Part shown: positions 5,262-58,077 of the stretch, piece after piece
Layout of the letters: the number at the start of each line of letters is the position of its first letter
Position numbering within the stretch: position 1 is the stretch's first letter
Source of the DNA: Thermodesulfobacteriota bacterium
GTDB taxonomy: Bacteria; Desulfobacterota; BSN033; UBA1163
Direction of reading: 5' to 3'
DNA: 64,000 nt
NCBI GenBank assembly: GCA_041947025.1
Contig: JBHGBJ010000004.1
Span: 85,580 to 149,579 of the forward strand
Translations under genes and position numbers: made by a program
Notes under the pieces: generated by a model
What the model was told of the DNA's origin: nothing
The model's database searches: none
What the model saw: the letters and a program-made list of their open reading frames with translations, nothing else

Positions 5262-5278
5262 AAGAAACGGGAAATTTC

Positions 5279-38399: not shown

Positions 38400-38450
38400 T
38401 CCAATGCGTTTCATGTTTCAATCTGAAATCTGCAATTTGAAATTTGAAAT
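38400..38450. repeat. Right-hand heptamer inverted repeat, partner of 37871-37965
   Basis: See the partner feature. Confidence 0.6.
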
Positions 38451-38455
38451 TAGTT

Positions 38456-39115
38456 TTATTCTCGTGAGACCAGGCCTTTTTCGATGGCGAAGGCGGTCAG
38501 GGCTTGTACATTATGGAAGTCCAGTTTCTCCATGATGTTGGCCCGGTGTTTCTCAATCGTTTTCACGCTGATGCAAAGCTCCTGGGCAATCTCCTTATTC
38601 TTATATCCTTCTGCAATCATCTTCAGGACTTCACGTTCCCGGGGGGTCAGCGATTCCCAGGCCGTGCGCGTTTTCAAGGTTTTCCTTCCTTCCAGGTACC
38701 CCTCGATCACTTTCTCGGAAACCTCCGGGCTGATATAAGGTTTGCCGCTCAACACTTTTCTGACCGCCATCACTAATTCTGTGTGGGTGGAATCCTTTAA
38801 AAGATATCCGTCAGCTCCCGCCTTCAGCGTATTGAGAATATACTCCTCAGCCCTGTGGACGGTCAAAACCAGGATCCTCGTCTTCGGACACTGCCTCTTG
38901 ATCTCCCGGATGGCTTCCATTCCATTCATCCGGGGCATGGAAAGATCGGTCAGGATCAGATCCGGCTTATGTTCCTCAACCTGTCGGATCGCCTCACGGC
39001 CATCTTCAGCCTCCGCCACGATCTCAAATTCCGGGTGAGAAGAGAGAAGGGATTTTAAGCCCTCCCTGAGGATGGTATGGTCTTCAGCGATTACAATTCG
39101 AAACTTTTTCTCCAT
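38456..39115 (-). CDS. NarL/LuxR-family response regulator (REC plus LuxR HTH)
   Basis: Likely start MEKKFRIVIAEDH; LILTDLSMPRMNG receiver Asp; C-terminal LTPREREVL...IAQEL.ISVKTIEKHRANIMEKL. Confidence 0.85.
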   Translation of the reverse strand: MEKKFRIVIAEDHTILREGLKSLLSSHPEFEIVAEAEDGREAIRQVEEHKPDLILTDLSMPRMNGMEAIREIKRQCPKTRILVLTVHRAEEYILNTLKAGADGYLLKDSTHTELVMAVRKVLSGKPYISPEVSEKVIEGYLEGRKTLKTRTAWESLTPREREVLKMIAEGYKNKEIAQELCISVKTIEKHRANIMEKLDFHNVQALTAFAIEKGLVSRE

Positions 39116-39226
39116 AATGCCGGCCCTTCCCTTTCTCAAATCGTTGGAAAATACATGAAATCATCTCACCAAATACTGTCAATACCTTATTTAGCATTTC
39201 GTGAAGTAATAGTAAAGTAGAAAAAA

Positions 39227-40310: not shown

Positions 40311-41006
40311 ATGAAACGATTGGTTCTTAGCCGAAGAAGATTCTTAAACCTGTGGGGAGCCGGAATCATCTCCTTTTTGATCCGTCCTCAAGACATTTCC
40401 TTCGCTCAGGCGAGAAAGGAGGCACCAATGGCCTATACTGCCAAAGATTACAATCGACTTTTGGGAATGGAGGGGTTCAGCGACACCCTTCTCAAGAACC
40501 ACTTCACCCTGTACCAAGGTTATGTCAACAATACCAACAAGCTGGTGGAGGCGTTTGCTCAGATGCTCAAGGAAGGAAAGGTGGCGACCCCCGAGTTTGC
40601 CGAGCTCAGGAGGAGGTTTGGATGGGAGTTCAACGGGATGAGACTGCATGAGTACTATTTTGAAAACCTCGGCGGAAAAGGAGGACTGGATAAGGCAGGC
40701 AAGCTCTTCAAGAAGATGTCGGAAGATTTCGGCGGGTACGAACCCTGGGAAAAAGAATTTAAGGCCGTGGGAGCCATGCGCGGGATCGGCTGGGCCGTTC
40801 TCTACCAGGACAGTCTCAACGGGAAACTCATCAACTTCTGGATCAACGAGCATGATGGTGGACATCCTGCCGGCTGCATCCCCCTGCTGATATTGGATGT
40901 TTTTGAACATGCCTTCATGATTGATTATGGATTGAAGAGAGCAGACTATATCGAAGCTTTTTTTAAGAATATCAACTGGAAAGGCGTAGAAGGAAGGCTG
41001 AAGTGA
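40311..41006 (+). CDS. Fe/Mn superoxide dismutase family protein with twin-arginine signal peptide (diverged)
   Basis: SRRRFLNLWGAGI Tat motif; C-terminal DVFEHAFMIDY matches the DVWEHAYY(L)DY metal-ligand motif; N-terminal NHFTLYQGYVNNTN resembles HHxKHH..YVNNLN. Confidence 0.6.
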   Translation: MKRLVLSRRRFLNLWGAGIISFLIRPQDISFAQARKEAPMAYTAKDYNRLLGMEGFSDTLLKNHFTLYQGYVNNTNKLVEAFAQMLKEGKVATPEFAELRRRFGWEFNGMRLHEYYFENLGGKGGLDKAGKLFKKMSEDFGGYEPWEKEFKAVGAMRGIGWAVLYQDSLNGKLINFWINEHDGGHPAGCIPLLILDVFEHAFMIDYGLKRADYIEAFFKNINWKGVEGRLK

Positions 41007-41128: not shown

Positions 41129-41575
41129 ATGGCCGTTTCATTAAAGCCCGTGACTAAGGTGAGTGATAAGTTAAAAGGAATGTTAAACGACGCCATTGCT
41201 CGAGAGATTCAGGTGAGCATCCAGTACATGTGGCAGCATGTGCAGGTGATGGGGGTCAAGGGGGTCGCCGTGCAGGATCGATTCAAGCAGACCGCCATCG
41301 CCGAGATGAAGCATGCGGAGTCCATTGCGGAAAGGCTCTGGTATCTCGAGGGAACTCCCACCACAAAGCCGGCGGCGATCAAAGTGGGGGAGAATCTGAA
41401 GGAGTTTCTTGAGCTGGATACGAAGGCCGAAGAGGAAGCAATCGTGCTCTATAAACAGATTATCGAGCTTGCCCAAAAAGAAGCGGATGTGACCACCGCC
41501 TTTATGTTCAAAGAAATTCTCGAGGATGAAGAAGAACATCACGATCTCTTCACAACCATGCTCGAAGAGGTGTGA
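41129..41575 (+). CDS. Bacterioferritin / ferritin-like di-iron protein
   Basis: 148 aa; paired E..H ligand motifs (AEMKHAE ... EEEHHD) of the ferritin-like four-helix bundle. Confidence 0.65.
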   Translation: MAVSLKPVTKVSDKLKGMLNDAIAREIQVSIQYMWQHVQVMGVKGVAVQDRFKQTAIAEMKHAESIAERLWYLEGTPTTKPAAIKVGENLKEFLELDTKAEEEAIVLYKQIIELAQKEADVTTAFMFKEILEDEEEHHDLFTTMLEEV

Positions 41576-41875: not shown

Positions 41876-42532
41876 CTATTCTTGGGAAACCAATCCCTTC
41901 TCGATGGCGTAGGCAGTCAAGGCCTGGACATTATGGAGGTTTAACTTGTCCATGAGGTTGGCTCGATGCTTCTCGACCGTCTTCTCACTGATACAGAGCT
42001 CATCCGCAATCTCTGTGTTCTTAAACCCCTCGGCGATCATTTTCAGGATTTCCCGTTCCCGGGGGGTAACCGTATCCCAGGGAGTCTGAGGCGTTAGGGC
42101 CTTCTTCCCTTCCAGATACCCTTCAAGCACCTTATCGGAGATTTCCGGGCTAATATAGTGGCTGCCACTTAGGACTCTTCTTACTGCCATGACCATTTCA
42201 GTGTGGGTAGAATCCTTCAGGAGATACCCGTCTGCTCCGGCCTTGAAAGTGGCAAGAATGTATTCATCTGCCTTATGAACAGTGAGGACCAGAACTTTTG
42301 TCTTTGGAAATTGCCTCTTGATCTCCCGGATAGCCTCCATCCCGTTCATCCGGGGCATGGAAAGGTCGGTCAGGATAAGATCGGGCTTCAATCTTTCAAC
42401 GCACCGGATCGCTTCCCGGCCATTTCCTGCTTCTCCCACGATCTCAAACTCAGAATAAGCGGAGAGAAGAGCCCGCAACCCTTCCCTGAGAATCGTGTGA
42501 TCCTCAGCAATAACAATCCGGTGTTTCGCCAT
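41876..42532 (-). CDS. NarL/LuxR-family response regulator, paralog of 38456-39115 (protein roughly 80 percent identical, DNA roughly 75 percent)
   Basis: Likely start MAKHRIVIAEDH; same motif set as the paralog. Confidence 0.85.
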   Translation of the reverse strand: MAKHRIVIAEDHTILREGLRALLSAYSEFEIVGEAGNGREAIRCVERLKPDLILTDLSMPRMNGMEAIREIKRQFPKTKVLVLTVHKADEYILATFKAGADGYLLKDSTHTEMVMAVRRVLSGSHYISPEISDKVLEGYLEGKKALTPQTPWDTVTPREREILKMIAEGFKNTEIADELCISEKTVEKHRANLMDKLNLHNVQALTAYAIEKGLVSQE

Positions 42533-42823
42533 TCCAATTAGCCTTTTTCCCTTCAATAATAAGGGCTTATTCCGGACCAAAGAAATTTTTTATTTATTTA
42601 TCATATTATTTAAGAGGAGTAAAGCAAAAAAACTGCTCTCTTCCTCCGTATGGGAGATGCCAAAATTCGGCACTTTGCCCACGGGAATATGGGACTTACC
42701 CAATCGGATTTATGCATATTACGTGCGAGAATTGCCTTATCGCGTTTATGAATGGCCATCCAGAGATATTCTGTGATCTCCTAGTATCCTGGCCAACTCA
42801 CACCCTGATGCCTGATATCCTGT

Positions 42824-43828
42824 TCAATATCCTTCTAAAATGAAGTCTGAGAATATGATTCTGTAGGTAACCACTGCGGCAAATATCAGGAATAGAACGA
42901 TAGAGGCAAGGCTAAGCTTCTTCTGAACCGAGGGAACAACCTTCAAAAGACTCTTCGTATGCCTGAAGGGCATCAATACGCCCACTCCCATCCCCGTGAT
43001 CGCACCCCCAAACAAGGATATGTAAAGAGGATAGCCGATATACCCATATTCTTTCTGAAGAATGCAGAAGGGACAGTGATGGGTCGGCAGTTCATAAAAA
43101 TAGAGGGATATGAAAGAGAGGATGGACAGAATGGAAACAAACAAGAGAATGGCGCTCAGAGATGAAAATAGATATCCTCCCCTGCCCCTGAGGTAATAGT
43201 AGATCCCGGAAGCAGTAGTGGATATGACGAAGAGGTAAAAGATCACTTTCATCGGAACGCCCGACAGTAAGACGATCTCCGAGACGGAGCGAACGGATTC
43301 CCCGCTGAAGAGGCTTCCGCAGCAGGAGGTGATGATATCGGGCCGGAGGTGAAGAAAGTAGTTGTCCTGCATCACAATCTCTGCAAGGATCAGGGGGGTT
43401 AAAATCAGCAGAAGAAAGTACTTCTTCTTGATCAGGGGATAATCGTAGCCCCGGTTGTCCGTGTAGTTCAAGATGAGCCAGAGGCCTGCGAGAAGAAAAT
43501 TGATCGTCTTCAGGACAAGGGCAGGATACCCATAGCTATTCACGTAGAGAGATCCTGCGGCGCACATTGCGCCCACAAAGAACGTATGCAAGTGGTCGGC
43601 GGTAAAGACATAGAGAAAGAGGGAGACGAGCTCGAACCCGAAGAGATAGGTGAGGAGGGTTGAGATGAGATAGGTCTTTCTTTCAAGAATGAGTTGAAGC
43701 TCGCTTCCGCTCTTGATGTCCCATTTTCTCAGGATCTGGACTCCGTAAGAAACGGAGTACAAAACCATGAAGCCGATCAGGATGGAGGACACGTAGAGCG
43801 CGATGATGCTCGGATGAAGGGTCATCAC
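42824..43828 (-). CDS. Polytopic membrane protein (about 8-9 TM) with conserved Cys motifs (SCCGS and PTHHCPFC); function unknown
   Basis: 334 aa, hydrophobic throughout; start overlaps the stop of the upstream ABC ATPase gene (operonic). Confidence 0.5.
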   Translation of the reverse strand: MMTLHPSIIALYVSSILIGFMVLYSVSYGVQILRKWDIKSGSELQLILERKTYLISTLLTYLFGFELVSLFLYVFTADHLHTFFVGAMCAAGSLYVNSYGYPALVLKTINFLLAGLWLILNYTDNRGYDYPLIKKKYFLLLILTPLILAEIVMQDNYFLHLRPDIITSCCGSLFSGESVRSVSEIVLLSGVPMKVIFYLFVISTTASGIYYYLRGRGGYLFSSLSAILLFVSILSILSFISLYFYELPTHHCPFCILQKEYGYIGYPLYISLFGGAITGMGVGVLMPFRHTKSLLKVVPSVQKKLSLASIVLFLIFAAVVTYRIIFSDFILEGY

Positions 43829-44502
43829 GTCCCTCCATCCACTCTTCCATCCCTGAGGTTGATCACTCTGTCCACAACTTTGGATTCAGAGACGATAGGG
43901 TCATGACTTGCGATCAGCACGGTCTTCCCTTCGTTCTTGAGCCTTTCCACGATTTCCATAAACTCCCGGGAGAGCTTGGTATCGAGGTGTGCTGTGGGCT
44001 CGTCAGCGATCACGACTGACGGATTATTGATCAACGCCCTCGCAATGGCCACCCGCTGGGACTCTCCGCCTGAAAGCCATTCCACTTTCGAGAACTCTTT
44101 CTTCGAAAGACCGAAGAGCTCAAGCAGGCCCATCGCCCTCTTCCTCAAAGAAGAGAATCTCTCCCCATTCGGGTAAGCAGGAACCATCACATTCTCCAGA
44201 ACTGTTATCCCTTTAATCAGATGGAATTGTTGAAAGATGAATCCAAAAGTGGTCCGTCTGACCTCGGTGAGAAACCTCTCTGGGAGACTCGATATCTCCC
44301 TATCGAAAAGCGTGATCCTGCCCGCTGTCGGCCTTGCCATGCAACCCAGGATGCTGAGGAGGGTGGTCTTCCCGGACCCGCTCGGGCCCTTAAAAACGGT
44401 CACTTTGCCGGAGTCGATCGTCAGGGTGATCCCCTCAAGGGCCACGAATTCATTCGGGTTCCCCATGTTAAAAACCTTTTTGATGTTCAGCAATTCGATC
44501 AT
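43825..44502 (-). CDS. ABC transporter ATP-binding protein (MacB/LolD-like)
   Basis: Walker A GPSGSGKTT, ABC signature LSGGESQR, Walker B VIADEPT. Confidence 0.88.
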   Translation of the reverse strand: MIELLNIKKVFNMGNPNEFVALEGITLTIDSGKVTVFKGPSGSGKTTLLSILGCMARPTAGRITLFDREISSLPERFLTEVRRTTFGFIFQQFHLIKGITVLENVMVPAYPNGERFSSLRKRAMGLLELFGLSKKEFSKVEWLSGGESQRVAIARALINNPSVVIADEPTAHLDTKLSREFMEIVERLKNEGKTVLIASHDPIVSESKVVDRVINLRDGRVDGGT

Positions 44503-44506
44503 TCTT

Positions 44507-45643
44507 CTATGACCTCATGATTGAATCCGGATCGATGGTGGCGGCCCTCCACGAGGGCACAATCGTTGAAACGGTGTAGGGGATGACCGTGAGGAAAAAG
44601 AGGGTCCCCACTTGATAGGCGCTGATGAAGGGCGTCAGCCTGAAATCCGGATAGAGCACGGACCAGCCCTTCAGCACGGGTGAAAAGACGGCTGCGGATG
44701 TGAAGAAGATATGACCGTAAGCCAGCAGAATTCCCAGCAGAAAGGAGGTCAGTGAAACCGCTACTCCTTCCCAGAATTTCATGAGCAGCACGTCCGAAGT
44801 CTCCCATCCCAAGGCCTTCAAGATCCCGATCTCCCGCTTTTCTTCCGCGCTCAATCCTGCTGCCTTGTCCCATGCAAAGATGATGAAAGCCATCACCGAG
44901 CCAAGGAGGATGACAATAAGGATTCCGCCTCGCCAGTCAAAGACGCTGTCATAGGTCCTCAATATCTCATCCCTGAGGATGGGCCGGCTGTCCGGAAGAA
45001 GCTGAAGGATCTTCGTCGCGATGGTCGTCAGCTCTTTCTTGTTCCGGACGCTCACGGTTAAGTCAGTGAAATACCCTTTCGATATGCCGAAGAGCTTCCT
45101 GAAATCTTTCTCTGCCATTAAGATGAGATCTGAAGAGACGAGTTCCGAGTCGGAGGAAAGAATCTCCTGAATCTCTAAATTCAAGACCGCTCCGTTATAG
45201 GCTCGAAAGGAGAGGCTGTCACCCTCGAACGCCAGGCGGCTCTTCGAAATTCCCTTTCCGATGCTGATCCTTTCAGGACCGCCCGTACCATCTCCCGGCA
45301 CCAAGAGGGTATAATTAGCCCCCACCACCGGATCGTAATAGTATCCCCAGAGGCGTCCTTTTACCGCGTGGACCCCTCTGATTCTCCTGATGGAATCGAT
45401 GTAGCTCGCCGGAATCAGATCGTGTCTTCCGCCGCTCATGCGCTGGACAAGCATCTCAGGCGAATCTCTCAGGACGAAAGCAGCTTCTTTCTTTATCGAG
45501 TGAGTGAAGAAGACGGCCGAAGCCAACAAGAAGACAATCAGGGTGTAGACCGCAACCAATGCCCCATTCTTCCCTTTCTTCCTGAAGATCGAGGAAAGGG
45601 TAAAATCAATCACGTGCTTTTGTTTCCCGATCCAGTTTTCCAT
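44507..45643 (-). CDS. ABC transporter permease of the FtsX/MacB type (N-terminal TM, large periplasmic domain, three C-terminal TMs)
   Basis: 378 aa; FtsX-like C-terminal module. Confidence 0.8.
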   Translation of the reverse strand: MENWIGKQKHVIDFTLSSIFRKKGKNGALVAVYTLIVFLLASAVFFTHSIKKEAAFVLRDSPEMLVQRMSGGRHDLIPASYIDSIRRIRGVHAVKGRLWGYYYDPVVGANYTLLVPGDGTGGPERISIGKGISKSRLAFEGDSLSFRAYNGAVLNLEIQEILSSDSELVSSDLILMAEKDFRKLFGISKGYFTDLTVSVRNKKELTTIATKILQLLPDSRPILRDEILRTYDSVFDWRGGILIVILLGSVMAFIIFAWDKAAGLSAEEKREIGILKALGWETSDVLLMKFWEGVAVSLTSFLLGILLAYGHIFFTSAAVFSPVLKGWSVLYPDFRLTPFISAYQVGTLFFLTVIPYTVSTIVPSWRAATIDPDSIMRS

Positions 45644-45935
45644 AAAAGTGCTCGATTCCTTTCGGAGGACCGATGATGCTCCCAGCGGGAAAATGCTCCA
45701 TAGACATGGGGTAGTCCTGAAAGGCCGTATGGAGGTCAGCCTGCGACGGATGCCGGGTATATCGGGCTTCGGTGCAAAGACAGAGGTCGGTCAGTTCCAG
45801 TCTTTTGACCAACTGCGCCATCTCTTGAAGCAACGGATCATCCGCCCTCATCCGAAAGAAGGAATGGAAGAAGATGAGGCAAAAGAGAGAGACGCCGACC
45901 ATCACGAAGATTAGAAAGGCATTCGATTTCCTCAT
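45606..45935 (-). CDS. Hypothetical small membrane-anchored protein; overlaps the permease start by 38 nt
   Basis: ORF with an N-terminal TM helix; weak RBS. Confidence 0.2.
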   Translation of the reverse strand: MRKSNAFLIFVMVGVSLFCLIFFHSFFRMRADDPLLQEMAQLVKRLELTDLCLCTEARYTRHPSQADLHTAFQDYPMSMEHFPAGSIIGPPKGIEHFYGKLDRETKARD

Positions 45936-46011
45936 TGTCTCTATTGTCTCTATTTCGGCGCCGATCCCTTACCCCTTGAGATGCCTGATTGACGATCTGA
46001 AGCGGTTCTGC

Positions 46012-46548
46012 TTAAAAAAGACTCGACAGGATTCTCTTTAGTCCCTCTTGGTTGACCTCACCGAGGACCTTAAATCGAATCACGCCCTTTCGATCGCAGA
46101 GAAAAGTGGTTGGAATGCCCGTGACGCCGTACTGCCGGGCCGTTCCCGAAGTAGAGTCAAGAAGAACGGGATAAGAGACTCTCATATTTGCCAGATAAGA
46201 CTCGGCCGCCCCTCTATTCTCTCCCACGTTGATTGAGAAAGGAATCAACCCCTTTCCTCCGTAACTGTTGTAAATCGATTCGATAGCAACCATCTCCTTG
46301 ATGCAGAAGGAACACCAGCTCGCCCAGAAGTGAACCAGGATCACCTTGCCGGGGAAGTCGCTGGGCAGAGTGATCTTATTCCCTTTCAAATCAGGCAGGG
46401 AAACCGTTGGAAGCGTGTCTCCGACCCTGAGAGATGCCTCGGCTGCCGCCGGCCAAAAAGCCACCGGGAGGAGAAAAGTTCCCGCTACCTTCATGCAGAA
46501 CTTCCAGAGATCCCTTCTGGACAAGACTTCAACTCCGGTTTTTTCCAT
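46012..46548 (-). CDS. TlpA/ResA-like periplasmic thiol-disulfide oxidoreductase (thioredoxin fold)
   Basis: WASWCSFC active-site CxxC; strong RBS GGGAGGGG before the 46548 ATG; RRDLWK N-region (possible Tat-like signal). Confidence 0.8.
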   Translation of the reverse strand: MEKTGVEVLSRRDLWKFCMKVAGTFLLPVAFWPAAAEASLRVGDTLPTVSLPDLKGNKITLPSDFPGKVILVHFWASWCSFCIKEMVAIESIYNSYGGKGLIPFSINVGENRGAAESYLANMRVSYPVLLDSTSGTARQYGVTGIPTTFLCDRKGVIRFKVLGEVNQEGLKRILSSLF

Positions 46549-46574: not shown

Positions 46575-48320
46575 CTACGCAATATTCCAGATTCCCATCA
46601 TTCCGAGGTCTTCGTGCTCAACGATGTGGCAATGGAACATGGACGTGCCCGCGAAATCCATCACCGACATGAGAATCCTCACGCTGCCCATGGCCGGGAC
46701 CAAGACCGTGTCCTTCCACGCTGGCACGCTCGTGTAAAACGCGGCGTACTCGGGGTCGCCCCCGTTAATGGCCAGCACCTGGCACGGATTGACGTGATGG
46801 TGAAAGGGATGATCCATCATGCTGTGGTTGAAAATCTCCCAGACCTCGTAGGTGCCGAGCTTCGAGTGGATCGTATGGGCGATCATCCTGCCATGGGGAT
46901 CGCCGGTCCCGGTGCCGTGGCCGTGGCCGCTCGAATCGTGAAGGAGAAGAGGACGGCCTTGATCCCCTGCGAGTTCGAATGTGATACCATTGATCGCGGC
47001 AAGTCCATGACCCATATTCGTGCCACTCATGTTCACGCCACCCATATTCATGCCGCTCATGTTCATGCCACGGCCCATACCCATCATACCCATGCCCATG
47101 CCGTGGCCCATGCTGAGGGTGAGTTGCTCTGTCTTGACCGGTGCCACCCGGACTCGAGTGGCGCCGGGGTTGACGGAAGCGGGCAGTTGGTCCGCAATGC
47201 GTTCCCCGCGATAAGAAAGGGTCAGGAGCGTGTGTTGCTGCATCGCGCCCATGCCTTGCCCACCGCAGTTGCCCATGCAGTGGCCGCTGCGGTTGTAAGG
47301 AAGCGAGAACAATCGGTAGCTCTTCTCGCTCTGGTCGGCCTTCACCAACAGATCCACGCGCTCGCCCGGTGAGAGGAGGAGAGAATTCACCGCGTAAGGC
47401 TTGTCGAGCAGCCCGCCTTCCGTACCGATGACGTGAAGGGGATGGCCCTCCAGGCTCAGCTTGTAGAAACGCGCGTTGCTGGCGTTGATGACCTTCCAGC
47501 GCTGGACCTGGCCCGGCTTGATGCTCATCACGGGGTTGACCTGTCCATTGACCATCACGACGTCGCCCTCTTTACCGTGCACGTAATCCATCATTGAGGT
47601 GTGGGCGCCGGGTTTTCCCTCCCCGATGCTGATGTCCTTGAGAAGGAGCAGACGAGTCTCGTAGCCGGCCAAGGCCTTGACCTCGTCCGCAACCTCCAGG
47701 GCCCCGGCCAACCCGCCCCACATCTGCTCGGCGACGGAACCGTGAATGTGGGGATGATAGAAATTCAGTGTGCCAGCCGGATGTTTCGACAGGTCATAAT
47801 CATAGACGAAGGTCTCATCGGTCATGCAGATGATCATGACGTTGTCGGAATTGCCGGAGGGAGAGACGTGCAACCCGTGGGTGTGGAGGTTACTGATGTC
47901 CCGGTCGTGGCCCATAAGGTTGTTGCCCAGCATGGAGAGGGAATTTTTGAAGCGGATCTGCAACCGGTCGCCGCTCTTGACCCGGATCGTCGGCCCGGGA
48001 TAACTGCCGTTATACGTGAGCAGTTGGGCCTCAGTGCCTCCGATACGGACGGGTGTGACCTTGGCTTCGAGGCTGACGATGACCTGTTTTGGATCATTAC
48101 TTTGGTTGGCAGCGACAGGCGGTTCCTTGAATGGATCTCCCGGTGGCGGATCAATCACTGCCACCTGGCCTCCTCCCATCATTCCCATTCCCCTCATCCC
48201 CATCATCCCGCCTCTCATCCTGGCCATTGCCGGATCAGCCTTCAGGCCGAGATAGGCCCCTGCAAGACCCAGGGATGTGAGCTTAAAGAAATCTCTTCGA
48301 TTCAAATTTCGCTTCTTCAT
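46575..48320 (-). CDS. Multicopper oxidase (CopA/CueO-like) with Tat signal and Met/His/Gly-rich inserts
   Basis: Tat motif NRRDFFKL; type-1/2/3 copper motifs HTHGLHV and HCHIVEHEDLGMMG; Met-rich tracts MRGGMMGMRGMGMMGGG and GHGMGMGMMGMGRGMNMSGMNMG. Confidence 0.88.
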   Translation of the reverse strand: MKKRNLNRRDFFKLTSLGLAGAYLGLKADPAMARMRGGMMGMRGMGMMGGGQVAVIDPPPGDPFKEPPVAANQSNDPKQVIVSLEAKVTPVRIGGTEAQLLTYNGSYPGPTIRVKSGDRLQIRFKNSLSMLGNNLMGHDRDISNLHTHGLHVSPSGNSDNVMIICMTDETFVYDYDLSKHPAGTLNFYHPHIHGSVAEQMWGGLAGALEVADEVKALAGYETRLLLLKDISIGEGKPGAHTSMMDYVHGKEGDVVMVNGQVNPVMSIKPGQVQRWKVINASNARFYKLSLEGHPLHVIGTEGGLLDKPYAVNSLLLSPGERVDLLVKADQSEKSYRLFSLPYNRSGHCMGNCGGQGMGAMQQHTLLTLSYRGERIADQLPASVNPGATRVRVAPVKTEQLTLSMGHGMGMGMMGMGRGMNMSGMNMGGVNMSGTNMGHGLAAINGITFELAGDQGRPLLLHDSSGHGHGTGTGDPHGRMIAHTIHSKLGTYEVWEIFNHSMMDHPFHHHVNPCQVLAINGGDPEYAAFYTSVPAWKDTVLVPAMGSVRILMSVMDFAGTSMFHCHIVEHEDLGMMGIWNIA

Positions 48321-48379: not shown

Positions 48380-48904
48380 CTACTGGTCGCCGCGAATCTG
48401 TCCGGAGATCATTTTCCTGTAGTCGGATAAGAGGTTCTTTGTCTTCTCCTTAATCCCATCCATCTCTTTTCGAAGGACCTCCTTATCACGACTATTCGTA
48501 GCGGCCATCAACTTTTCCTGGATCTGGACGACCTCGGCGATCACCTGTAAAGCATCCTGCATCGACAAGATGTAGAGAATATCGCGCATGGTCAATCCTT
48601 GGTCCATGTTATGACTCATTTCGGGCTGGTTCATCGGCATCGAACCGCTCATCATATTGCCCATCATGTTCCCCATACCACAGCGCATGGGCATCATCTG
48701 CATCGATTGGCCGCCCTGCATCATCCCTTGATTCATCCAGGATGGGTTCGGTTGATTGAATGGCCCCCCTTGCACCCCTGTCGGAGGACCGGGCACGGGT
48801 ATCGTCTCCTGGGGACGTGCCGTTACCTGTTGCTGTGGCGTCTGGGCAAAGGCAGCACCGCAGGATACAAAGAGAATCCAAAACAGAATGAACGTTCTTC
48901 TCAT
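48380..48904 (-). CDS. Secreted Met-rich protein, probable periplasmic Cu(I)-binding protein
   Basis: Signal peptide MRRTFILFWILFVSCGAAFA after RBS GGAGGAGG; Met-rich core MMQGGQSMQMMPMRCGMGNMMGNMMSGSMPMNQPEM. Confidence 0.5.
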   Translation of the reverse strand: MRRTFILFWILFVSCGAAFAQTPQQQVTARPQETIPVPGPPTGVQGGPFNQPNPSWMNQGMMQGGQSMQMMPMRCGMGNMMGNMMSGSMPMNQPEMSHNMDQGLTMRDILYILSMQDALQVIAEVVQIQEKLMAATNSRDKEVLRKEMDGIKEKTKNLLSDYRKMISGQIRGDQ

Positions 48905-48960
48905 ATCATCCTCCTCCGTTCCTTTCTCTTCAATAACGAAGAGCGAAAGGGTGAAGTCCA

Positions 48961-49431
48961 TTAATCGAGGCCCTTCACCAGATTGAATGTAATCTCCTGA
49001 AATTTTAGTACGGGTTTGCCTGAATGGTCTTTCATGAACTCCTTTGCATCGCCTTCGTTTTGGAAAGGAATGAGCTCTTTTCCCATGGGCCCGAAGACAT
49101 TGCTTCCTGCGACGTAATAGGCCTTGTACCCATCCGTAAAAGTCAGGCTGTAGTAATCTTTGACATAAATGGAATCCGTTTTCTTCGAGGGTTGATGCTT
49201 CTTCAGGTTGAAGTAATACTTGAACATATCTTTTGCCCCGTCGAAAACAACATAGGTCCCGTCTGTAAAGACAATCTCGGCAAGCCAGTCAGGATATTTT
49301 GCAACGAACATCCCGCAGACCGGGCATTTGTCCTTCGGAGAAGGGTTGATCGGCTTTCTTTCCCCGCCGTTCACATCAGCCGCCAGCATCAGGACCAGAA
49401 AAATCGGGACACATACCATTTTCTTATTCAT
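48961..49431 (-). CDS. NosL-family copper-chaperone-like protein; the N-terminal codons are encoded by a REP copy
   Basis: DKCPVCGMFV metal-binding motif as in NosL; N-terminus MNKKMVCVPIFLVLML, where KMVCVPIF is the translation of the REP at 49399-49423. Confidence 0.55.
   Translation of the reverse strand: MNKKMVCVPIFLVLMLAADVNGGERKPINPSPKDKCPVCGMFVAKYPDWLAEIVFTDGTYVVFDGAKDMFKYYFNLKKHQPSKKTDSIYVKDYYSLTFTDGYKAYYVAGSNVFGPMGKELIPFQNEGDAKEFMKDHSGKPVLKFQEITFNLVKGLD
49399..49423. repeat. REP copy AAAAATCGGGACACATACCATTTTC (forward orientation)
   Basis: Exact match to the REP core; inverted partner at 50954-50980. Confidence 0.75.
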
Positions 49432-49631
49432 CCTTCGGCATTCCCTTCGTCTCTAAGATAAATTGCGTCTCGATGGGCTCTTACCCACACAAACCATTGA
49501 CCTTCGACAGGCTCAGGCCGAACGGCGGTCCGTTGAAATGAAGTGATTTTTCCGTTCATACTGAGATTGTCGAAGCATAAAATCAATCTGGGCAACAGCC
49601 CCTCGATCTGTCACAGATGGAGAATCACGCT

Positions 49632-50183
49632 TCATGGATGCTTTTGCTCCATGCCTTTGTGGTCCATTTTTTTTTCTTCCATCATCTTCATGCGACGAGC
49701 CTGTCGTCTTTCCCGGATCATCTTCGTGTCAGCGTACATGTCTTCATAGGAAGCCTTAATCGCCTGATCAAAACTGGCAATCACACCACCATTCTCCTTG
49801 ATGAACTTTTCGGCTTCTTCCTTCTTTTCAAAGGCCCACTTCGCCCGGTGTGTCATAACCCCCATCTTATTTCCGCCCATCACCCAGAAAGCCTTCTCCA
49901 CATCGATCAGCGCCTTTGAGCCATAATCGCCCACCGTGATCGCCTTAGGGGTCTTATCCAGCTGCAGGGCAAGTTCAACGGCGGCACAGTGGATGCTGCA
50001 TGTCCCAATCGACGTTCCATCGTCATACTCGATGAACACGCGGCTATGAGCATACTGCTGCCGGTTCATTCCGCAGTACTTGCAGGACGGGTACTTCTGA
50101 ATGTCTTCCTGACCCAAAGAGATTCCTGTCATGCAAAAGCAAAATATGAAAGCCACTGTTAAAAAAATGTATATCCGTTTCAT
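49632..50183 (-). CDS. NosL-family copper-chaperone-like lipoprotein/secreted protein (second paralog)
   Basis: Signal peptide; CKYCGM motif; Met/Lys-rich C-terminal tail. Confidence 0.55.
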   Translation of the reverse strand: MKRIYIFLTVAFIFCFCMTGISLGQEDIQKYPSCKYCGMNRQQYAHSRVFIEYDDGTSIGTCSIHCAAVELALQLDKTPKAITVGDYGSKALIDVEKAFWVMGGNKMGVMTHRAKWAFEKKEEAEKFIKENGGVIASFDQAIKASYEDMYADTKMIRERRQARRMKMMEEKKMDHKGMEQKHP

Positions 50184-50365
50184 AGAGGTCTCCTTTCGAA
50201 CGTAAGAAAGATCAGACGGGGAATTTTCCCCCGCCCTTTTCAGAGAAATCGGTCAACCCGTGAATCAACCCATTCATAATTTCGAACAGATATCCTGCCT
50301 TTCGAGTCGAGATTTCCTGCCTACCCATCGGTCCAGAAGTATTTCAGGCCCATCACCACCCCCTT

Positions 50366-50797
50366 TCAACCAACGGAAAATTCTCCCCTTTTCCACTTTT
50401 CTTTTTCCGTTTCAGTCTGAGATTCTTCCTGCCTGTACTCGCATTTCTCACATAGACCCTGCTCTTCAAACGAGACCTGGCAAAAAGTACCCCTCTCCTT
50501 CCAGCACGGTTTAGCACATCCCTGCCTAACGGACTGCCGCATGCACTTCAGGCAGCCATCCTTGAACCAACAGGGATAGAAGGTCAGGTGGTATGCCACA
50601 CCAGCCAGATTGAGACCTTTATCAAGAAGGCCTTGAATAAAGGAAAGGCGCTTTAGATCTTGGTCAGTGTACAACCGATGATCGTGTTTTCGAGGAGGTT
50701 TGAGAAGGCCATGGCGCTCCCAGACGCGGAGAGTTTCCGGGTGCACGCCCATGAGATCCGCCACAACGCCTATTGTATAAAGAGGTTTTTTCTCCAT
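50366..50797 (-). CDS. MerR-family transcriptional regulator with a Cys-rich C-terminal domain (10 Cys)
   Basis: N-terminal MerR HTH (YTIGVVADLMGVHPETLRVWERHGLL); C-terminal CWFKDGCLKCMRQSVRQGCAKPCWKERGTFCQVSFEEQGLCEKCEY. Confidence 0.8.
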   Translation of the reverse strand: MEKKPLYTIGVVADLMGVHPETLRVWERHGLLKPPRKHDHRLYTDQDLKRLSFIQGLLDKGLNLAGVAYHLTFYPCWFKDGCLKCMRQSVRQGCAKPCWKERGTFCQVSFEEQGLCEKCEYRQEESQTETEKEKWKRGEFSVG

Positions 50798-50953
50798 CCA
50801 AAGACCTTCAAAAGAAACTTTGAGCTATTTTCAATACCCTTTTATAAGAAACTCTATCCGATTGGGATAAGCGTTCATATGGGTTCAATGATGTATTCTC
50901 GGGAAAAATGGACTGTATTTTTCGGATACTCTGACGAAATAGAGCAAGTGTAA

Positions 50954-50980: not shown

Positions 50981-51151
50981 AAAATACAGCGTCTATGGGT
51001 CGAAAATACATCATTCACCTGATTATTTTTTTAACGAGGCCGTGATTGAATGAAAGGTAACAAAGGCTGGCAGCTTTTCATCTCGCTTGAAATAGGTTAT
51101 GCTGAGCACGGTACGGGTGCCCTTTTGACACCCCCATTATCAGAAGAAAGG

Positions 51152-51769
51152 ATGAAGATGATCCTAAAGATCCTGATCGTCATCAGCTTGATAAGCTTCT
51201 CTACGCCTTGTTGGGCAGACATCTACAAGTATGAAGATGAAAACGGGGTGATTCATTTTACGAATCGGCCCAGAGATCCTCAATTTAAACTCTACCTTCA
51301 AGATAGGACCGGAAAGGGTGAAGAGATGCCAGGCGCTTCTTTCGAGACGGATCCCCCTTCTGTCGACCACCCTTACGAGGCCTTGATTTCTGCAGTTTCC
51401 AACAAATATCAGGTCGATTCTGCTCTGATCAAGGCCATCATTCGGGCTGAATCGGGATTCAACCCTCTTGCTGTCTCACCAAAAGGAGCAAGGGGGCTGA
51501 TGCAATTGATGCCGGAAACCGCTTCACGAGTGAAGGTGTCCAATCCTTTTAATCCTCAGGAGAATATCGAAGGCGGGGTTCGGCATTTCAAGTATCTTCT
51601 CTCGCTTTTCCATAATGATGTCCGGCTCTCATTGGCCGCCTACAATGCAGGGGAGGATATCGTTTCCAAATTGAGAACGATTCCGCCTTACCGGGAAACC
51701 ATCGATTATGTTCGAAAGGTATTGTACTTTTACCAACTCAACCAAGGGCAAAAAGCCATCATTTTTTAA
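51152..51769 (+). CDS. Lytic transglycosylase (SLT domain) with N-terminal DUF4124-like domain and signal peptide
   Basis: ADIYKYEDENGVIHFTN (DUF4124-like); SLT catalytic motif ESGFNPLAVSPKGARGLMQLMP. Confidence 0.8.
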   Translation: MKMILKILIVISLISFSTPCWADIYKYEDENGVIHFTNRPRDPQFKLYLQDRTGKGEEMPGASFETDPPSVDHPYEALISAVSNKYQVDSALIKAIIRAESGFNPLAVSPKGARGLMQLMPETASRVKVSNPFNPQENIEGGVRHFKYLLSLFHNDVRLSLAAYNAGEDIVSKLRTIPPYRETIDYVRKVLYFYQLNQGQKAIIF

Positions 51770-51789: not shown

Positions 51790-52770
51790 ACAGAATACAG
51801 TATTTTTCTTGAAGAAATACTGTCTTCTACTCATTGCTCCATCATGGGATTTGTAAGAAAATGACGGCATTATAAAAGAATTGCCAACGAACCCGTAAAC
51901 GTGATAAGAAAGCCCATGGATTTAAAATCCTTTGAATTTCTTGTACAGAGTGACAGAGAGGTTAAACAATACTGGATGCGGCAGTGCTGGAAAAACGACT
52001 TCCTCTTCTGTATACGTTGCCGGGCGAGAAGGATCTATCGGGTCCGGCGCGACCGATACCGTTGCAGCCAATGCGGTTATGAATTCTCCGATTTTACCGG
52101 AAGGTGGATCAATAGGGTGAAACTTCCGCTAAGAGACTGGCTCTGGCTGGTCAAACTTTTTGAGTTGGAAATCTCGGCCAGAAAGGTTTCTCAGCAGCTC
52201 GGTATATCCTATCCGACCGTGCTCAAAGCCTTTCACCTGATCCGAAAGGCGATTACCGCTCATGCGGATGGCCGCGATTCTCTCCTCAACGGGGAAGTCG
52301 AGTTGAACCAGACCTATTTTGAAGATCGTCGTCGCAATAGACCTTCCCATAAGATTCCTGTCTTCGGTATTCTTGAAAGAAAAGGCCAGGTCAGAGTGGA
52401 GATCTTGAAAGAAATCACTGCGGAGGAGATGCTCAACAAGACGGTTAAGACGGTGAGGAGAGGGTCCGTCGTCTACACCGATCGATTCAACGGGTACGAT
52501 GCACTGATGTTCTGCGGCTACAAGCATATCCGGATGAACTCCGGGAAACGGTTTACCCGTAAGGAAGTCTACATCAATGGTGTGGACGGCTTCTGGAGTT
52601 ATGCGAAGGAGAGGATCAACAAGTTTCACGGAGTCTCAAGGGAAAAGTTCCCTTTCTACCTGAAGGAGATGGAGTTCAGGTACAACCACAGGAATAAGCC
52701 GATTTTCGATAAATTGGTCTGCTACCTTTGTGATCTGGCGGTGGTCTGAGAATATCTGTCTGAGGCAAGA
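51790..52770 (+). mobile_element. IS1595-family (ISXO2-like) insertion sequence, approximate ends
   Basis: Transposase CDS inside; left-end palindrome ACAGTATTT-n9-AAATACTGT at about 51803-51830; ends and target-site duplication not confidently defined. Confidence 0.4.
51916..52749 (+). CDS. IS1595-family transposase (N-terminal zinc ribbon plus DDE domain)
   Basis: CIRCRARRIYRVRRDRYRCSQCGYEF zinc ribbon followed by a DDE_Tnp_IS1595-like core (YTDRFNGYD...NGVDGFWSYAKER). Confidence 0.75.
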   Translation: MDLKSFEFLVQSDREVKQYWMRQCWKNDFLFCIRCRARRIYRVRRDRYRCSQCGYEFSDFTGRWINRVKLPLRDWLWLVKLFELEISARKVSQQLGISYPTVLKAFHLIRKAITAHADGRDSLLNGEVELNQTYFEDRRRNRPSHKIPVFGILERKGQVRVEILKEITAEEMLNKTVKTVRRGSVVYTDRFNGYDALMFCGYKHIRMNSGKRFTRKEVYINGVDGFWSYAKERINKFHGVSREKFPFYLKEMEFRYNHRNKPIFDKLVCYLCDLAVV

Positions 52771-52773: not shown

Positions 52774-54483
52774 ATGGATTCCCATCAAGATCGGATGGCC
52801 TCTTATTTGATCGAAAAGGGGCTCCTTCAAAAAGAAGATTTGGATAAGATCCTTCCTCCGGGCCAGCCGGCCGGCGCCCTTTCTCTGGAGGAAAAGCTGA
52901 TTCAATCTGGACTGATGGGCGAGGAGCAATTCCGGAAGGTGGTGGAAGAATTTTATGGGGTCCCTTTTTTTGCAGTCAAAGATCTGCCACCTGAACCCGT
53001 CCTCGTCAATTCTCTCTCGGTCGATTTCATGAAAGAGTCCAAATTCATCCCCGTTCGCTTCGCCGAAAACGAGCTGACCATCGCCATGAGTCATCCTCTC
53101 GATTTTTACACCATCGACGCCATACGGGTCGCCACGGGTCACCAGGTTCGGGTGGTCTATGCCATGGAGGAGGGAATTCTGTGGGCCATTGACCAATATT
53201 ATGGATCGGGGAACACTTCCATGGAAAAGATCATTGAGGATCTGGATGCTGTCCCGGAGTACCGGGTCGAGGATGAGGAGAATATCGATCATCTTCGGGA
53301 CATGGCGTCGGAGGGACCGGTCATCCGGCTGGTCAATCTCATTATCAGCAAGGCCATCGAGACCAGGGCCAGCGATATTCACTTTGAGCCCTTCGAGGAC
53401 CAGTTCAGGGTCCGTTATCGGATTGACGGGGTGCTGCACGATGTGGAATCGCCTCCGAAGCGCCTCCAGGCGGCCATCGCCTCCCGTGTCAAGATCATGG
53501 CCAAGCTCAACATTGCGGAGAGACGTCTTCCGCAGGATGGGCGGATCATGCTCCGCGTGAAGGGAAAGGAGATCGATTTCAGGGTCTCTTCGGTTCCGAC
53601 CATCTACGGGGAAAGCATCGTTCTAAGGATCCTGGATAAGAGCAGCATTGTCCTCGATATTGAGAAACTCGGTTTCCCGCACGATACGCTCACGGGATTC
53701 AACGATCTGATCCAGAGGCCCCACGGCATCATTCTGGTCACGGGCCCGACCGGAAGCGGAAAGACCACAACCCTCTACTGCGCCCTGGAGAAGATCAATG
53801 CCCCGGACAAGAAGATCATCACCATCGAGGACCCTGTGGAATATCAGCTCAAAGGGATCAACCAGATCCAGGTCAAGCCAGCGATCGGCCTTTCCTTTGC
53901 CAATGCATTGAGATCGATTGTCCGTCAGGATCCGGATGTGATTCTGATCGGAGAGGTCCGGGATGCTGAGACAGCAGAGATTGCGATCCACTCCGCATTG
54001 ACCGGTCACCTCGTATTGAGCACGCTCCACACGAATGATGCGCCCAGCGCGGTCACCCGATTGATCGATATGGGGATGGAGGATTTCCTTCTCTCCTCGA
54101 CCCTGATCGGGATTTTAGCCCAGCGGTTGGTTCGCGTGACCTGCCCCCACTGCCAGGTTCCCTATATCCCCGATCCTGCGATTCTGAAGGAAATGGATCT
54201 CCACGGCAGGGAGCCTGATCATTCGAAGATCGTGGGAGTCAAGGGATGCGAACACTGCGCCCAGACAGGATATTGGGGCCGGGCGGGGATCTTTGAATTT
54301 TTGAAGGTGACCGAAGAGATACAAAAACTGATCCTGGGAAAGAAGGACGCCAATATTATCAAGGAGGAGGCTCGCAAACAGGGGATGAGGACGTTGAGGG
54401 AAGACGGTTGGCTGAAGGTGAAGCAGGGGATGACCACCGTTTCGGAAGTCCTGAGGGTCACCCAGGAGGAGAGGGTCGGATAA
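52774..54483 (+). CDS. gspE: Type II secretion / type IV pilus-type assembly ATPase (GspE family) with N-terminal T2SSE_N domain and C-terminal zinc-binding CxxC...CxxC
   Basis: Walker A GPTGSGKTT, Asp box, Walker B, His box; tetracysteine CPHC...CEHC. Confidence 0.9.
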   Translation: MDSHQDRMASYLIEKGLLQKEDLDKILPPGQPAGALSLEEKLIQSGLMGEEQFRKVVEEFYGVPFFAVKDLPPEPVLVNSLSVDFMKESKFIPVRFAENELTIAMSHPLDFYTIDAIRVATGHQVRVVYAMEEGILWAIDQYYGSGNTSMEKIIEDLDAVPEYRVEDEENIDHLRDMASEGPVIRLVNLIISKAIETRASDIHFEPFEDQFRVRYRIDGVLHDVESPPKRLQAAIASRVKIMAKLNIAERRLPQDGRIMLRVKGKEIDFRVSSVPTIYGESIVLRILDKSSIVLDIEKLGFPHDTLTGFNDLIQRPHGIILVTGPTGSGKTTTLYCALEKINAPDKKIITIEDPVEYQLKGINQIQVKPAIGLSFANALRSIVRQDPDVILIGEVRDAETAEIAIHSALTGHLVLSTLHTNDAPSAVTRLIDMGMEDFLLSSTLIGILAQRLVRVTCPHCQVPYIPDPAILKEMDLHGREPDHSKIVGVKGCEHCAQTGYWGRAGIFEFLKVTEEIQKLILGKKDANIIKEEARKQGMRTLREDGWLKVKQGMTTVSEVLRVTQEERVG

Positions 54484-57320: not shown

Positions 57321-58077
57321 GTCTCTTCTTCTCATTGAGAAACGAAGGGATCGCGGATTCACCCTGCTTGAGGTGATCGTCACACTCACCGTTATTGGAT
57401 TCATTCTTCTCATCATTTTCGGGGCCTTCCGTCTGGGCTTCTCTGCCTGGGACAAAGGGGAATCTCTCAAGGAAGAGTATCAAAGGACGCGGATGATCTC
57501 CCAGTTGATCGCTCAGCAGATGAAATCGGCCGTCCCGTACAAGATCAAGACCAAGAAGGCAGAAGGGGATTATCTCGCCTTCGAGGGAGATGACCATTCC
57601 GTGAAGTTCGTCTCGGCTTTCTCGGTGAAGGCGAAAGAATCCGAAGGATTTGTTTTTGCCGCCTATGATTTCAGAAGAGAAGGAAGGGAAGGAGGCCGTT
57701 TGGTTTTTTACGAGCAGAGGGCTCTCAACAAAGACTTCTTTGAAGAGAGACCCAAGGAGGAATTGGAAATTCAGCTGCTGGAGGGGGTTTCAAATGTCCA
57801 GTTCGAATACTATCGGGAGGAAGACCCGGATGAGAATCGGACAGAGGAATGGGTTCCAGAGTGGAATGCAAGAGAAGAGAAGGAGTTGCCCAGGGCCTTC
57901 CGAATGACGATCACCTATGCTGCCGCTCCAGAGGCGGGGCAGTCCGGGCAGACCAAGGAGAAGAAGGTCTCCATCCAGCTTCTCGCATCCATTCCAGCCC
58001 ATCAATTGGAGGAGTTGAGAACCGCTCCACCCGGCATAAGGGGATTACAGCAAATACCCCAGAGAAGAGCGAATTAA
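57307..58077 (+). CDS. Minor pseudopilin GspJ-like
   Basis: Prepilin N-terminus RGFTLLEVIVTL; size and position. Confidence 0.55.
   Translation: METFESLLLIEKRRDRGFTLLEVIVTLTVIGFILLIIFGAFRLGFSAWDKGESLKEEYQRTRMISQLIAQQMKSAVPYKIKTKKAEGDYLAFEGDDHSVKFVSAFSVKAKESEGFVFAAYDFRREGREGGRLVFYEQRALNKDFFEERPKEELEIQLLEGVSNVQFEYYREEDPDENRTEEWVPEWNAREEKELPRAFRMTITYAAAPEAGQSGQTKEKKVSIQLLASIPAHQLEELRTAPPGIRGLQQIPQRRAN

Follow-up and report, generated by a model that had tools for sequence, protein, structure and literature searches.

Regulator architecture

A gene for a MerR-superfamily regulator lies at the head of a copper-related gene cluster in a 64-kb stretch of a Thermodesulfobacteriota metagenome-assembled genome (MAG; assembly GCA_041947025.1, contig JBHGBJ010000004.1, positions 85,580 to 149,579), hereafter called the window. 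The gene (50366..50797, minus strand) is an open reading frame (ORF) with an ATG start that encodes 143 aa plus stop, and its product joins a winged helix-turn-helix (HTH) of the MerR superfamily to a cysteine-rich domain resembling the two-CW domain. An earlier reading made from the letters alone, the sequence-only reading, had placed a MerR-family gene here at the head of a copper island, and both points were borne out. The MerR_1 match is 69.1 bits (E 3.6e-19), and the gene is the first of ~10 co-directional genes that include two NosL genes, a gene for a Met-rich protein, and a multicopper oxidase gene. A database protein annotated as coming from a Thermodesulfobacteriota MAG (P0001) is 100% identical to the regulator, and the N-terminus MEKKPLYT is common to its homologues.

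DNA-binding head. Residues 1-72 (50582..50797, minus strand) make up a winged HTH of the HspR/GlnR/TnrA kind as judged by Pfam, NCBIfam, PDB profile, and Foldseek comparisons. MerR_1 (PF13411) was the sole Pfam family matched, covering residues 7-68 against a gathering score of 21.6. The best NCBIfam model was HspR (NF047375), which matched residues 4-69, the HTH only, with 61.8 bits against a cutoff of 105. The models for CueR (24.2 bits, cutoff 147.4), ZntR (42.4, cutoff 167.95), MerR (38.8, cutoff 150.85), and CadR (27.3, cutoff 151.45) all aligned to the first ~70 residues only, and the SoxR and TnrA models reached 19.5 bits (cutoff 116.9) and 21.6 bits (cutoff 140). Searching all PDB sequences with a family profile returned GlnR first (E 3.4e-13) together with TnrA, followed by MerR, CarH, CadR, and CueR, with matches to the head only; every PDB and NCBIfam alignment of the regulator stopped at residue 68-85.

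An AlphaFold model built on 93 homologues (mean predicted local distance difference test score, pLDDT, 83.8; predicted template modeling score 0.72) was confident for the winged HTH at residues 9-71 (pLDDT 93-97). Residues 72-119 of the model contain no helix, so there is no counterpart of the MerR/CueR coiled coil. Foldseek comparison to the PDB aligned ~70 residues, best to GlnR/TnrA (template modeling, TM, score 0.75-0.82), and the head superposed on those of MerR-family proteins with a root-mean-square deviation of 1.1-2.2 Å. The restriction of the matches to the head and the lack of the coiled-coil helix in the model place the regulator in the 'short' MerR-superfamily branch (HspR, GlnR, TnrA, CarH) and not among the coiled-coil metal sensors. 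This agrees with the sequence-only reading, which had already set the protein apart from the canonical two-cysteine CueR/MerR sensors: the MerR match ends near residue 70, the CueR, SoxR, ZntR, and MerR models all score far below their cutoffs, and the long dimerization helix is missing from the structure model.

Cysteine-rich domain. The head is abutted directly, with no intervening coiled coil, by a 45-aa cysteine-rich module (residues 74-120; 50438..50578, minus strand), which we predict to be the sensor. It carries YPCW, CxxC, Cx3C within KPCWK, GTFC, and a second CxxC, and its eight cysteines (C76, C82, C85, C94, C98, C106, C116, and C119) all fall inside 44 residues. CxxC occurs at 82-85 and 116-119 and Cx3C at 94-98. 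The earlier description of a ten-cysteine C-terminal domain with CxxC and CxC motifs was therefore right about the cysteine-rich half and the presence of CxxC and wrong about the count, which is eight, and about CxC, which is absent. The model gave the module short strands at 86-89 and 105-108 (pLDDT ~70-88). The remainder of the protein (residues 121-143 plus stop; 50366..50437, minus strand) is a charged, non-conserved tail without cysteines, and the helix predicted at 120-136 is less confident and likewise non-conserved. In alignments the corresponding tail of Bacillota-type homologues is cysteine-rich, unlike that of the window's regulator.

Across the 93 homologues Y74, C76, C98, W99, C106, C116, and C119 were invariant, and W77 and C82 (99%), K100 (96%), and K96 (95%) nearly so. 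C85 and C94 behaved as a pair. Both were present in 36 sequences, including that of the window, which almost never have tail cysteines; both were missing from 53, and 52 of these 53 had one to four extra cysteines in the tail, often as CxxCxxC. Since tail cysteines compensate for the loss of C85 and C94, the alignments suggest that the total number of thiolate ligands (~7-9) matters in this family. A pair that moves in this way is also easier to reconcile with metal or cluster binding than with a structural site of fixed position.

The extended domain that the sequence-only reading had singled out proved in these alignments and in a domain-only profile search to be conserved and family-specific. 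It had no Pfam match, and profiles of the domain retrieved nothing from the PDB sequences even at E ≤ 10, and thus no solved structure. Among 1.84 billion representative proteins the domain-only profile had just 39 hits at E ≤ 0.001. Nearly all of these share the regulator's architecture, being 110-180 aa long with the domain at about residues 70-125, so that the module is, on profile evidence, essentially confined to the regulator family.

The exceptions were the small stand-alone proteins P0150 (which has two copies of the domain), P0153, and P0155, which match the NCBIfam 'two-CW domain' (NF045718). P0150 was retrieved by the C-terminal profile of the family at E 1.5e-5 and scores 38.9 bits on NF045718, against a cutoff of 35. 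With hhalign, the set of MerR C-terminal regions aligned to two-CW-like proteins over 50 columns at 97.5% probability (E 6e-12), and the window sequence alone at 90.5%, both against a comparison set partly chosen by similarity to the query profile. Seven of the eight window cysteines align with cysteines of the two-CW-like proteins, including those of both CW dipeptides and the core (K/R)PCW(K/E)xxGT(F/Y)C. The hallmark of the two-CW domain, two conserved Cys-Trp dipeptides in a module of six to eight conserved cysteines, is present in the regulator as C76-W77 and C98-W99. Because the window's domain does not reach NF045718 directly, we regard it as a probable distant relative of the two-CW domain and not as a member.

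Our literature search found no paper on the two-CW domain. The stand-alone two-CW-like proteins (P0150, P0157, P0158, P0159, P0161, and P0165-P0167) are unannotated and 68-253 aa long, some have N-terminal segments that look transmembrane or two copies of the domain, and they share the core PCW...CP...CP...PCWE..GT(F/Y)CK...C..C. A homologue search with P0150 returned three proteins only, and a profile search returned 19 small stand-alone proteins. Two genomic contexts for such proteins, beside recA and beside HdrD-like genes, were uninformative.

Homologues and hosts

We searched 5.8 billion protein clusters and obtained 153 relatives with the cysteine region covered. Those with organism names belong to Thermodesulfobacteriota, Chloroflexota, Bacillota (e.g., Desulfitobacterium and Calderihabitans), and Actinomycetota. 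Scanning a single genome from each species yielded 80 loci, including some from Dehalococcoidia, Desulfosporosinus, Lutispora, and Pseudobacteroides. We take all of the named host taxa to be strict anaerobes. The literature search turned up no characterized member of the family and no publication on it. The known part of the regulator is its MerR-superfamily DNA-binding head; the new part, as far as sequence comparison can tell, would be the sensor module with its predicted operator and regulon.

Predicted operator and promoters

Upstream of the regulator gene lies a candidate operator, TTCAAA-AGAAAC-TTTGAG as read on the plus strand (50807..50824, no strand assigned). Its core dyad, TCAAA-N6-TTTGA (50808-50823), lies 11 nt 5' of the ATG and extends to YTCAAA-N6-TTTGAR at 50807-50824. 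The sequence-only reading had noticed this dyad and called it imperfect; it is in fact perfect, and it is conserved as a predicted operator. A 5-bp dyad alone means little, and with one mismatch allowed the pattern is about as frequent as in shuffled sequence. The exact YTCAAA-N6-TTTGAR, however, occurs once in the window, and in the loci retrieved it was almost confined to the stretch immediately before the regulator gene. When scored with a weight matrix derived from the other loci only, 50804-50827 was the top site of the window (16.2-16.3 bits, compared with maxima of 13.4 and 12.0 in shuffles), and the upstream regions of 25 close relatives carry the same palindrome at the same position.

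The relaxed form TCAA(A/T)-N6-(A/T)TTGA was found throughout the family in relatives from three phyla. In 154 loci (1.25 Mb) its density was 1.40/kb in the 200 bp upstream of the regulator gene and 0.97/kb in the 250 bp downstream, against 0.049/kb elsewhere, an enrichment of ~20-29-fold beside the gene. Many of the occurrences counted as elsewhere had stereotyped positions before the first gene of a neighboring operon. The relaxed palindrome is thus the predicted operator of the whole family. An anchored alignment of 14 close-clade upstream regions further revealed a putative extra half-site, TTGAAA (50829..50834, minus strand), which is conserved in the close clade as TTGAAAA-N3/4-TTCAAA. 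We found no second operator before nosL-1, nosL-2, or the multicopper oxidase gene in the window. Two secondary weight-matrix hits, 57724-57747 and 44464-44487, fall within coding regions and scored at or near the shuffle level with the all-family matrix; we discarded them as chance matches.

We predicted a sigma-70-type promoter, P1 (50841..50870, minus strand), from the sequence, with a -35 box TTATCC (50870-50865), an 18-nt spacer, and a -10 box TATAAA (50846-50841). The corresponding block in the close clade, TTGyCC-17/18-TAnAAA, is conserved and precedes the operator. P1 was not called by a simple promoter scanner, which demands T as the last -10 position. P1 would put the window palindrome at about +11 to +28, a position suited to repression.

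Loci with <62% identity, mostly from Bacillota, have a different arrangement. In 15 of 25 upstream operators the right half-site takes the form TTGAnn and is followed at exactly 17 nt by a TATAAT-like box (an exact TATAAT in 12), whereas only 4.9% of control TTGA sites have such a box at that spacing. The operator of the Bacillota type is therefore predicted to overlap the -35 hexamer of the regulator's own promoter, and from this repressor geometry we predict that the regulator is a repressor. With the promoters as predicted, the operator does not sit inside the over-long (19-20 bp) -35/-10 spacer of canonical metal-sensing MerR proteins. For intergenic operators downstream of the regulator gene in Bacillota, no convincing -35/-10 pair could be placed, and these sites may act as roadblocks or looping partners.

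A sigma-54 promoter was also considered, within the conserved block TGGCAT-N5-GTTC that precedes the operator. We rejected it because there is no -12 GC element and because the GG/GC pair is not present in the window copy. At one relative's locus (L002, the same as L014), a response-regulator gene and a fragment weakly like a sigma-54 activator lie divergently upstream of the regulator (5039-5746); no sigma-54 promoter was found for the operon.

Gene neighborhood in the window

The regulator gene is followed on the minus strand by two NosL-family genes. The first (49632..50183) encodes 183 aa (Pfam NosL, E 3.8e-15) and is syntenic in two relatives' loci (L001 and L105); the second (48961..49431) encodes 156 aa (E 1.9e-32) and is syntenic in the close clade. 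Next come a Met-/Gly-rich protein of 193 aa without a Pfam or NCBIfam match (48380..48961) and a CueO-like multicopper oxidase (46575..48320) with three Pfam Cu-oxidase domains, an RR-containing N-terminal signal region, and a Met-rich insert. The oxidase scored 179.9 bits on the CueO model, below the cutoff of 525. The co-directional cluster continues at 42824..46548 with a thioredoxin/TlpA-like redoxin (46012-46548, Pfam), a 109-aa ORF (45606-45935), an FtsX permease (44507-45643, Pfam), an ATP-binding cassette (ABC) ATPase (43825-44502, Pfam), and a 334-aa ORF (42824-43828), all on the minus strand. FtsX and ABC genes also occur together in type-B operons of close relatives. In the 182 nt that separate the regulator from nosL-1 lies a G+C-rich hairpin (50214..50236, minus strand; 10 pairs, 6 of them G-C) that could be a partial terminator or attenuator and is missing from the relatives. 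Co-transcription of the regulator and nosL-1 is likely.

Both the long Met/Gly-rich insert of the oxidase (MGHGMGMGMMGMGRGMNMSGMNMGG...) and the Met-rich 193-aa protein encoded upstream of it (MMQGGQSMQMMPM...) have stretches that resemble Met motifs for Cu(I) binding in the periplasm. Between the two NosL genes, a 200-nt gap holds an inverted repeat (49502-49575; 24-nt arms, 79% complementary, 26 nt apart) that may represent a repeat element or form an RNA structure.

Right beyond the copper cluster are genes for a Fe/Mn superoxide dismutase (40311-41006, plus strand), a ferritin/Dps-like protein (41129-41575, plus strand), and a LuxR-type response regulator (41876-42580, minus strand), and because these adjoin the cluster the region looks like a wider oxidative and metal-stress neighborhood. 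Farther along are two arrays of 7-bp tandem repeats, AATTTCA x6.6 at 37870-37915 and AATTTGA x4.6 at 38420-38451. The latter ends immediately upstream of where a gene for a LuxR-type response regulator (38456-39139, minus strand) starts. Such arrays could be regulator-binding or phase-variable elements. On the other side of the regulator, an IS1595-family transposase gene (zinc ribbon plus DDE; 51901-52749, plus strand) separates an SLT transglycosylase gene (51050-51769) from gspE, a type II secretion gene (52774-54483), and the same gspE-transposase arrangement stands beside a regulator fragment with 90% identity in a metagenome locus (L160).

Neighborhoods of relatives

Relatives with at least 70% identity had one of two layouts, regulator-NosL-NosL-ABC-multicopper oxidase or regulator-YtkA-like-two unknown proteins-FtsX-ABC-NosL-NosL. 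The distance from the regulator to the next gene ranged from an overlap to ~90 nt with no terminator-like hairpin, and for this reason we read the close-clade clusters as operons with the regulator as first gene. The copper-gene link that had been proposed for the window is thus conserved in the closest clade, in which NosL, YtkA-like, ABC, and multicopper oxidase genes are syntenic.

Other groups had different neighbors. In a subclade with 62-70% identity (metagenome loci L106-L111), two tandem copies of the regulator precede genes for DsrC-like, DsrM-like (Nitrate_red_gam), and DsrK-like (Fer4_8 plus CCG) proteins, each with the palindrome before it. A MoCF_biosynth gene stands before the regulator copies, and the palindrome occurs upstream, between the copies, and again ~930 bp downstream. 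In the group with 57-61% identity the regulator was divergent from a DUF134/ferredoxin/Nitro_FeMo-Co/MinD-Fer4/Mrp cluster and co-directional with genes for a pyridine-nucleotide disulfide oxidoreductase and a CDF exporter. Among the ~80 genome-scan loci, mostly from Bacillota and Chloroflexota, the commonest neighbor was an Mrp/NUBPL iron-sulfur (Fe-S) carrier ATPase (44 loci, immediately downstream in 27), and the others included Nitro_FeMo-Co (42), a MinD-like ATPase with a ferredoxin insert (Fer4; 27), DUF134 (18), and NifU_N (17). This is the gene set of the 'orange protein' (ORP) system of Desulfovibrio, in which Mrp-ORP is an Fe-S carrier (PMC6345978) and, in D. vulgaris, the orp operons are controlled by OrpR, which senses redox through a [4Fe-4S] cluster (PMC8359166).

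The sequence-only reading had suggested sensing of Cu or of redox state. A copper-specific signal is the less likely one in the family at large: most members adjoin Fe-S/'orange protein', DsrC/DsrMK-like, or disulfide-reductase genes and not copper genes. Motifs of DnaK, DnaJ, GrpE, and ClpB were absent from all 154 loci. Only six loci (L030, L045, L046, L063, L070, and L092, from Lutispora/Clostridiaceae) have groEL near the regulator-Mrp pair, 3-5.5 kb downstream, and we read this proximity as a lineage-specific neighborhood and not as a link to heat shock.

Proposed mechanism and alternatives

The reading we favor, at somewhat less than an even chance, is that the protein is an autoregulated MerR-superfamily repressor whose cysteine domain holds a cofactor labile to O2, redox change, or Cu, most likely an Fe-S cluster. 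Two subunits would bind the palindrome and repress the regulator's own gene, from a site just downstream of the promoter in the window and over the -35 box in Bacillota. Through co-transcription, the nosL-nosL-Met-rich protein-multicopper oxidase-redoxin-ABC genes would be repressed as well. The cysteine domain would carry one or two Fe-S clusters, and oxidation or destruction of this cofactor by O2, a raised redox potential, or Cu(I) would change dimerization or DNA affinity and lift repression. The regulator would then be the MerR-type counterpart of OrpR, the [4Fe-4S] redox sensor of the Desulfovibrio 'orange protein' operons. An Fe-S cofactor is suggested by the hosts, which belong to taxa taken to be strict anaerobes, by the precedent of OrpR, and by the sense that induction of the oxidase upon exposure to an oxidant would make, since a multicopper oxidase needs O2 to work. 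Indirect signs of kinship with Fe-S cluster-sensing regulators (SoxR, OrpR, FNR, IscR, and Wbl) are the conservation and covariation of the cysteines, the presumed strict-anaerobe hosts, and the operator-bearing Fe-S-biogenesis neighbors. The signal is less likely to be copper alone than a general one (redox state, O2, the integrity of Fe-S clusters, or thiophilic metals), and a general metal-sulfur or thiol-homeostasis signal is indicated because one sensor module serves Fe-S trafficking, DsrC-type thiol, disulfide-reductase, and copper operons.

We extend this, a shade more tentatively, to a sensor class that would be new and specific to anaerobes. In it, a MerR-type head would be dimerized and switched by a two-CW domain with Fe-S cluster(s), or possibly a Cu-thiolate. 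The class would control ORP/Mrp/NifU genes in Bacillota and Chloroflexota (where it would replace OrpR), DsrC/DsrMK-like genes in one Thermodesulfobacteriota subclade, and the NosL/multicopper oxidase system in the window's clade.

Several observations weigh against the favored reading. The arrangement of a CPxC and a CxxC before a helix also fits a zinc ribbon or treble clef, and the window's own domain does not match NF045718 even at E ≤ 10. The promoters were assigned by eye and are weak, and in the close clade the operator lies downstream of one predicted promoter and, at type-B loci, 4-5 nt upstream of a second -35 box, so that activation is possible there. The window has a single operator, and a hairpin lies in the gap before nosL-1; regulation of the copper genes would therefore have to rely on read-through.

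Direct sensing of a thiophilic metal is the main rival, if an unlikely one. Here the apo protein would repress at the palindrome, and Cu(I) (or Ag, Cd, or Zn) bound by six to eight thiolates as a polynuclear cluster of the CopY or Ace1/Amt1 Cu4S6 type would release it and induce the NosL, multicopper oxidase, and ABC genes. This explanation fits the window's own clade best, where the regulator heads NosL/YtkA-like/ABC/multicopper oxidase clusters throughout. Cu4S6 clusters use six Cys ligands, the number of essentially invariant cysteines in the regulator, and the repressor geometry matches the logic of CopY and CsoR. Because Cu(I) attacks Fe-S clusters, Fe-S repair genes would be plausible in a copper-stress regulon, and one relative adjoins a CDF cation-efflux gene. 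Against this, the 25 commonest neighbor clusters contain no copper genes, and most members stand beside Fe-S/ORP, DsrC/DsrMK-like, or coenzyme A-disulfide-reductase genes. The floating C85/C94 pair and compensating tail cysteines suggest more than six ligands, and searches of NCBIfam, Pfam, and PDB gave no similarity to known Cu(I) sensor domains.

Less probable again, though the conservative alternative, is a structural zinc domain, in which one or two Zn(Cys)4 sites would replace the coiled coil for dimerization and the signal would be a Zn-ejecting thiol-disulfide switch or something that a partner protein senses. The short β strands of the model, flanked by the CPxC and the CxxC that starts the helix, recall a zinc ribbon or treble clef, eight cysteines would suit two four-cysteine sites, and the absent coiled coil needs some substitute dimer contact. 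Structural Zn ligands normally keep fixed positions, however, and in this family two of them are found either in the core or in the C-terminal tail. Nor would a plain Zn fold explain why the family is seen only in presumed strict-anaerobe taxa, and no Zn-ribbon family matched in Pfam or PDB.

An ordinary HspR-type heat-shock repressor, titrated by DnaK and with an incidental cysteine tail unrelated to metals, is the outcome that the sequence-only reading had itself set against its proposal, and we consider it very improbable. HspR is the best NCBIfam match of the N-terminal domain, several relatives are labeled 'heat shock protein HspR' in JGI annotations, and groEL lies 3-5 kb downstream in six Clostridia loci; the score is nevertheless far below the cutoff and confined to the HTH, the family operator TCAAW-N6-WTTGA differs from the HspR inverted repeat (CTTGAGT-N7-ACTCAAG), chaperone motifs are missing from the 154 loci, and the cysteine domain is invariant across phyla. 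A canonical CueR-like activator, which would remodel a 19-20-bp-spacer promoter upon Cu(I) binding, shares membership in the MerR superfamily and adjacency to copper genes with the regulator and is hardly credible, as the coiled coil and the C-terminal two-cysteine loop are both absent, the CueR model scores 24.2 bits against 147.4, and the operator falls outside any long -35/-10 spacer.

Implications

To our knowledge, few sensors of oxygen, redox, or copper stress have been characterized in strict anaerobes, and we know of regulators for 'orange protein' and Mrp-type Fe-S systems only in Desulfovibrio (OrpR). The family is a compact candidate that lends itself to testing: the domain boundary is defined, six cysteines are essentially invariant, the predicted operator is a precise 16-18 bp, and predicted target operons occur in cultivated genera such as Desulfitobacterium, Desulfosporosinus, Lutispora, and Pseudobacteroides. 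In the window itself, a NosL/multicopper oxidase island of a Thermodesulfobacteriota MAG is probably controlled through the regulator. If the proposed sensor class is real, it would give a first role to the so far function-less two-CW domain and would link damage of Fe-S clusters by O2, redox, or copper to copper detoxification. It would also add another way of wiring a signal to the MerR head, after coiled-coil sensors, the B12-binding CarH, and the tail-regulated TnrA/GlnR.

Relation to known regulators

GlnR and TnrA, nitrogen regulators of Bacillus that belong to the MerR superfamily and lack the coiled coil, are the best solved relatives of the regulator head, all without the long dimerization helix. 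They too use a palindromic operator of similar size, although with a different sequence (TGTNA-N7-TNACA), and act mainly as repressors from sites overlapping promoters. Their C-terminal tail, in contrast, is a short peptide that binds glutamine synthetase, with no cysteine domain, and their regulon is unrelated. HspR, which represses heat-shock genes in Actinobacteria and Campylobacterota, gave the top NCBIfam match and likewise represses by binding an inverted repeat at its own operon. It lacks a cysteine-rich domain, and the regulator falls below its family cutoff, has another inverted repeat, and has no DnaK, DnaJ, GrpE, or ClpB genes nearby.

CueR, ZntR, and MerR share the DNA-binding superfamily and adjacency to metal genes with the regulator, which has eight cysteines in a 44-residue module in place of their antiparallel coiled coil and two- or three-cysteine loop and is predicted to repress rather than remodel a promoter. 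SoxR demonstrates that a MerR-superfamily head can be coupled to a redox-sensing [2Fe-2S] cluster, but SoxR retains the coiled coil and its cluster motif, CX2CXCX5C, is absent from the regulator. The two-CW domain has in common with the regulator's domain two invariant Cys-Trp dipeptides, the core (K/R)PCW(K/E)xxGT(F/Y)C, and a terminal CxxC. The regulator's domain is shorter, and the two-CW proteins that we retrieved are small stand-alone proteins with no fusion to a DNA-binding domain.

The head would bind DNA in the manner of GlnR, TnrA, or HspR, and in its predicted logic the regulator resembles OrpR, SoxR, CopY, or CsoR. A functional analogue is OrpR, which controls operons for Nitro_FeMo-Co, MinD plus Fer4, and Mrp by redox in an anaerobe, the same gene set that, preceded by the palindrome, lies beside most members of the regulator family. 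The two have no sequence relation: OrpR is a sigma-54 activator with a [4Fe-4S] PAS domain (PMC8359166), an AAA+ domain, and a Fis-type HTH.

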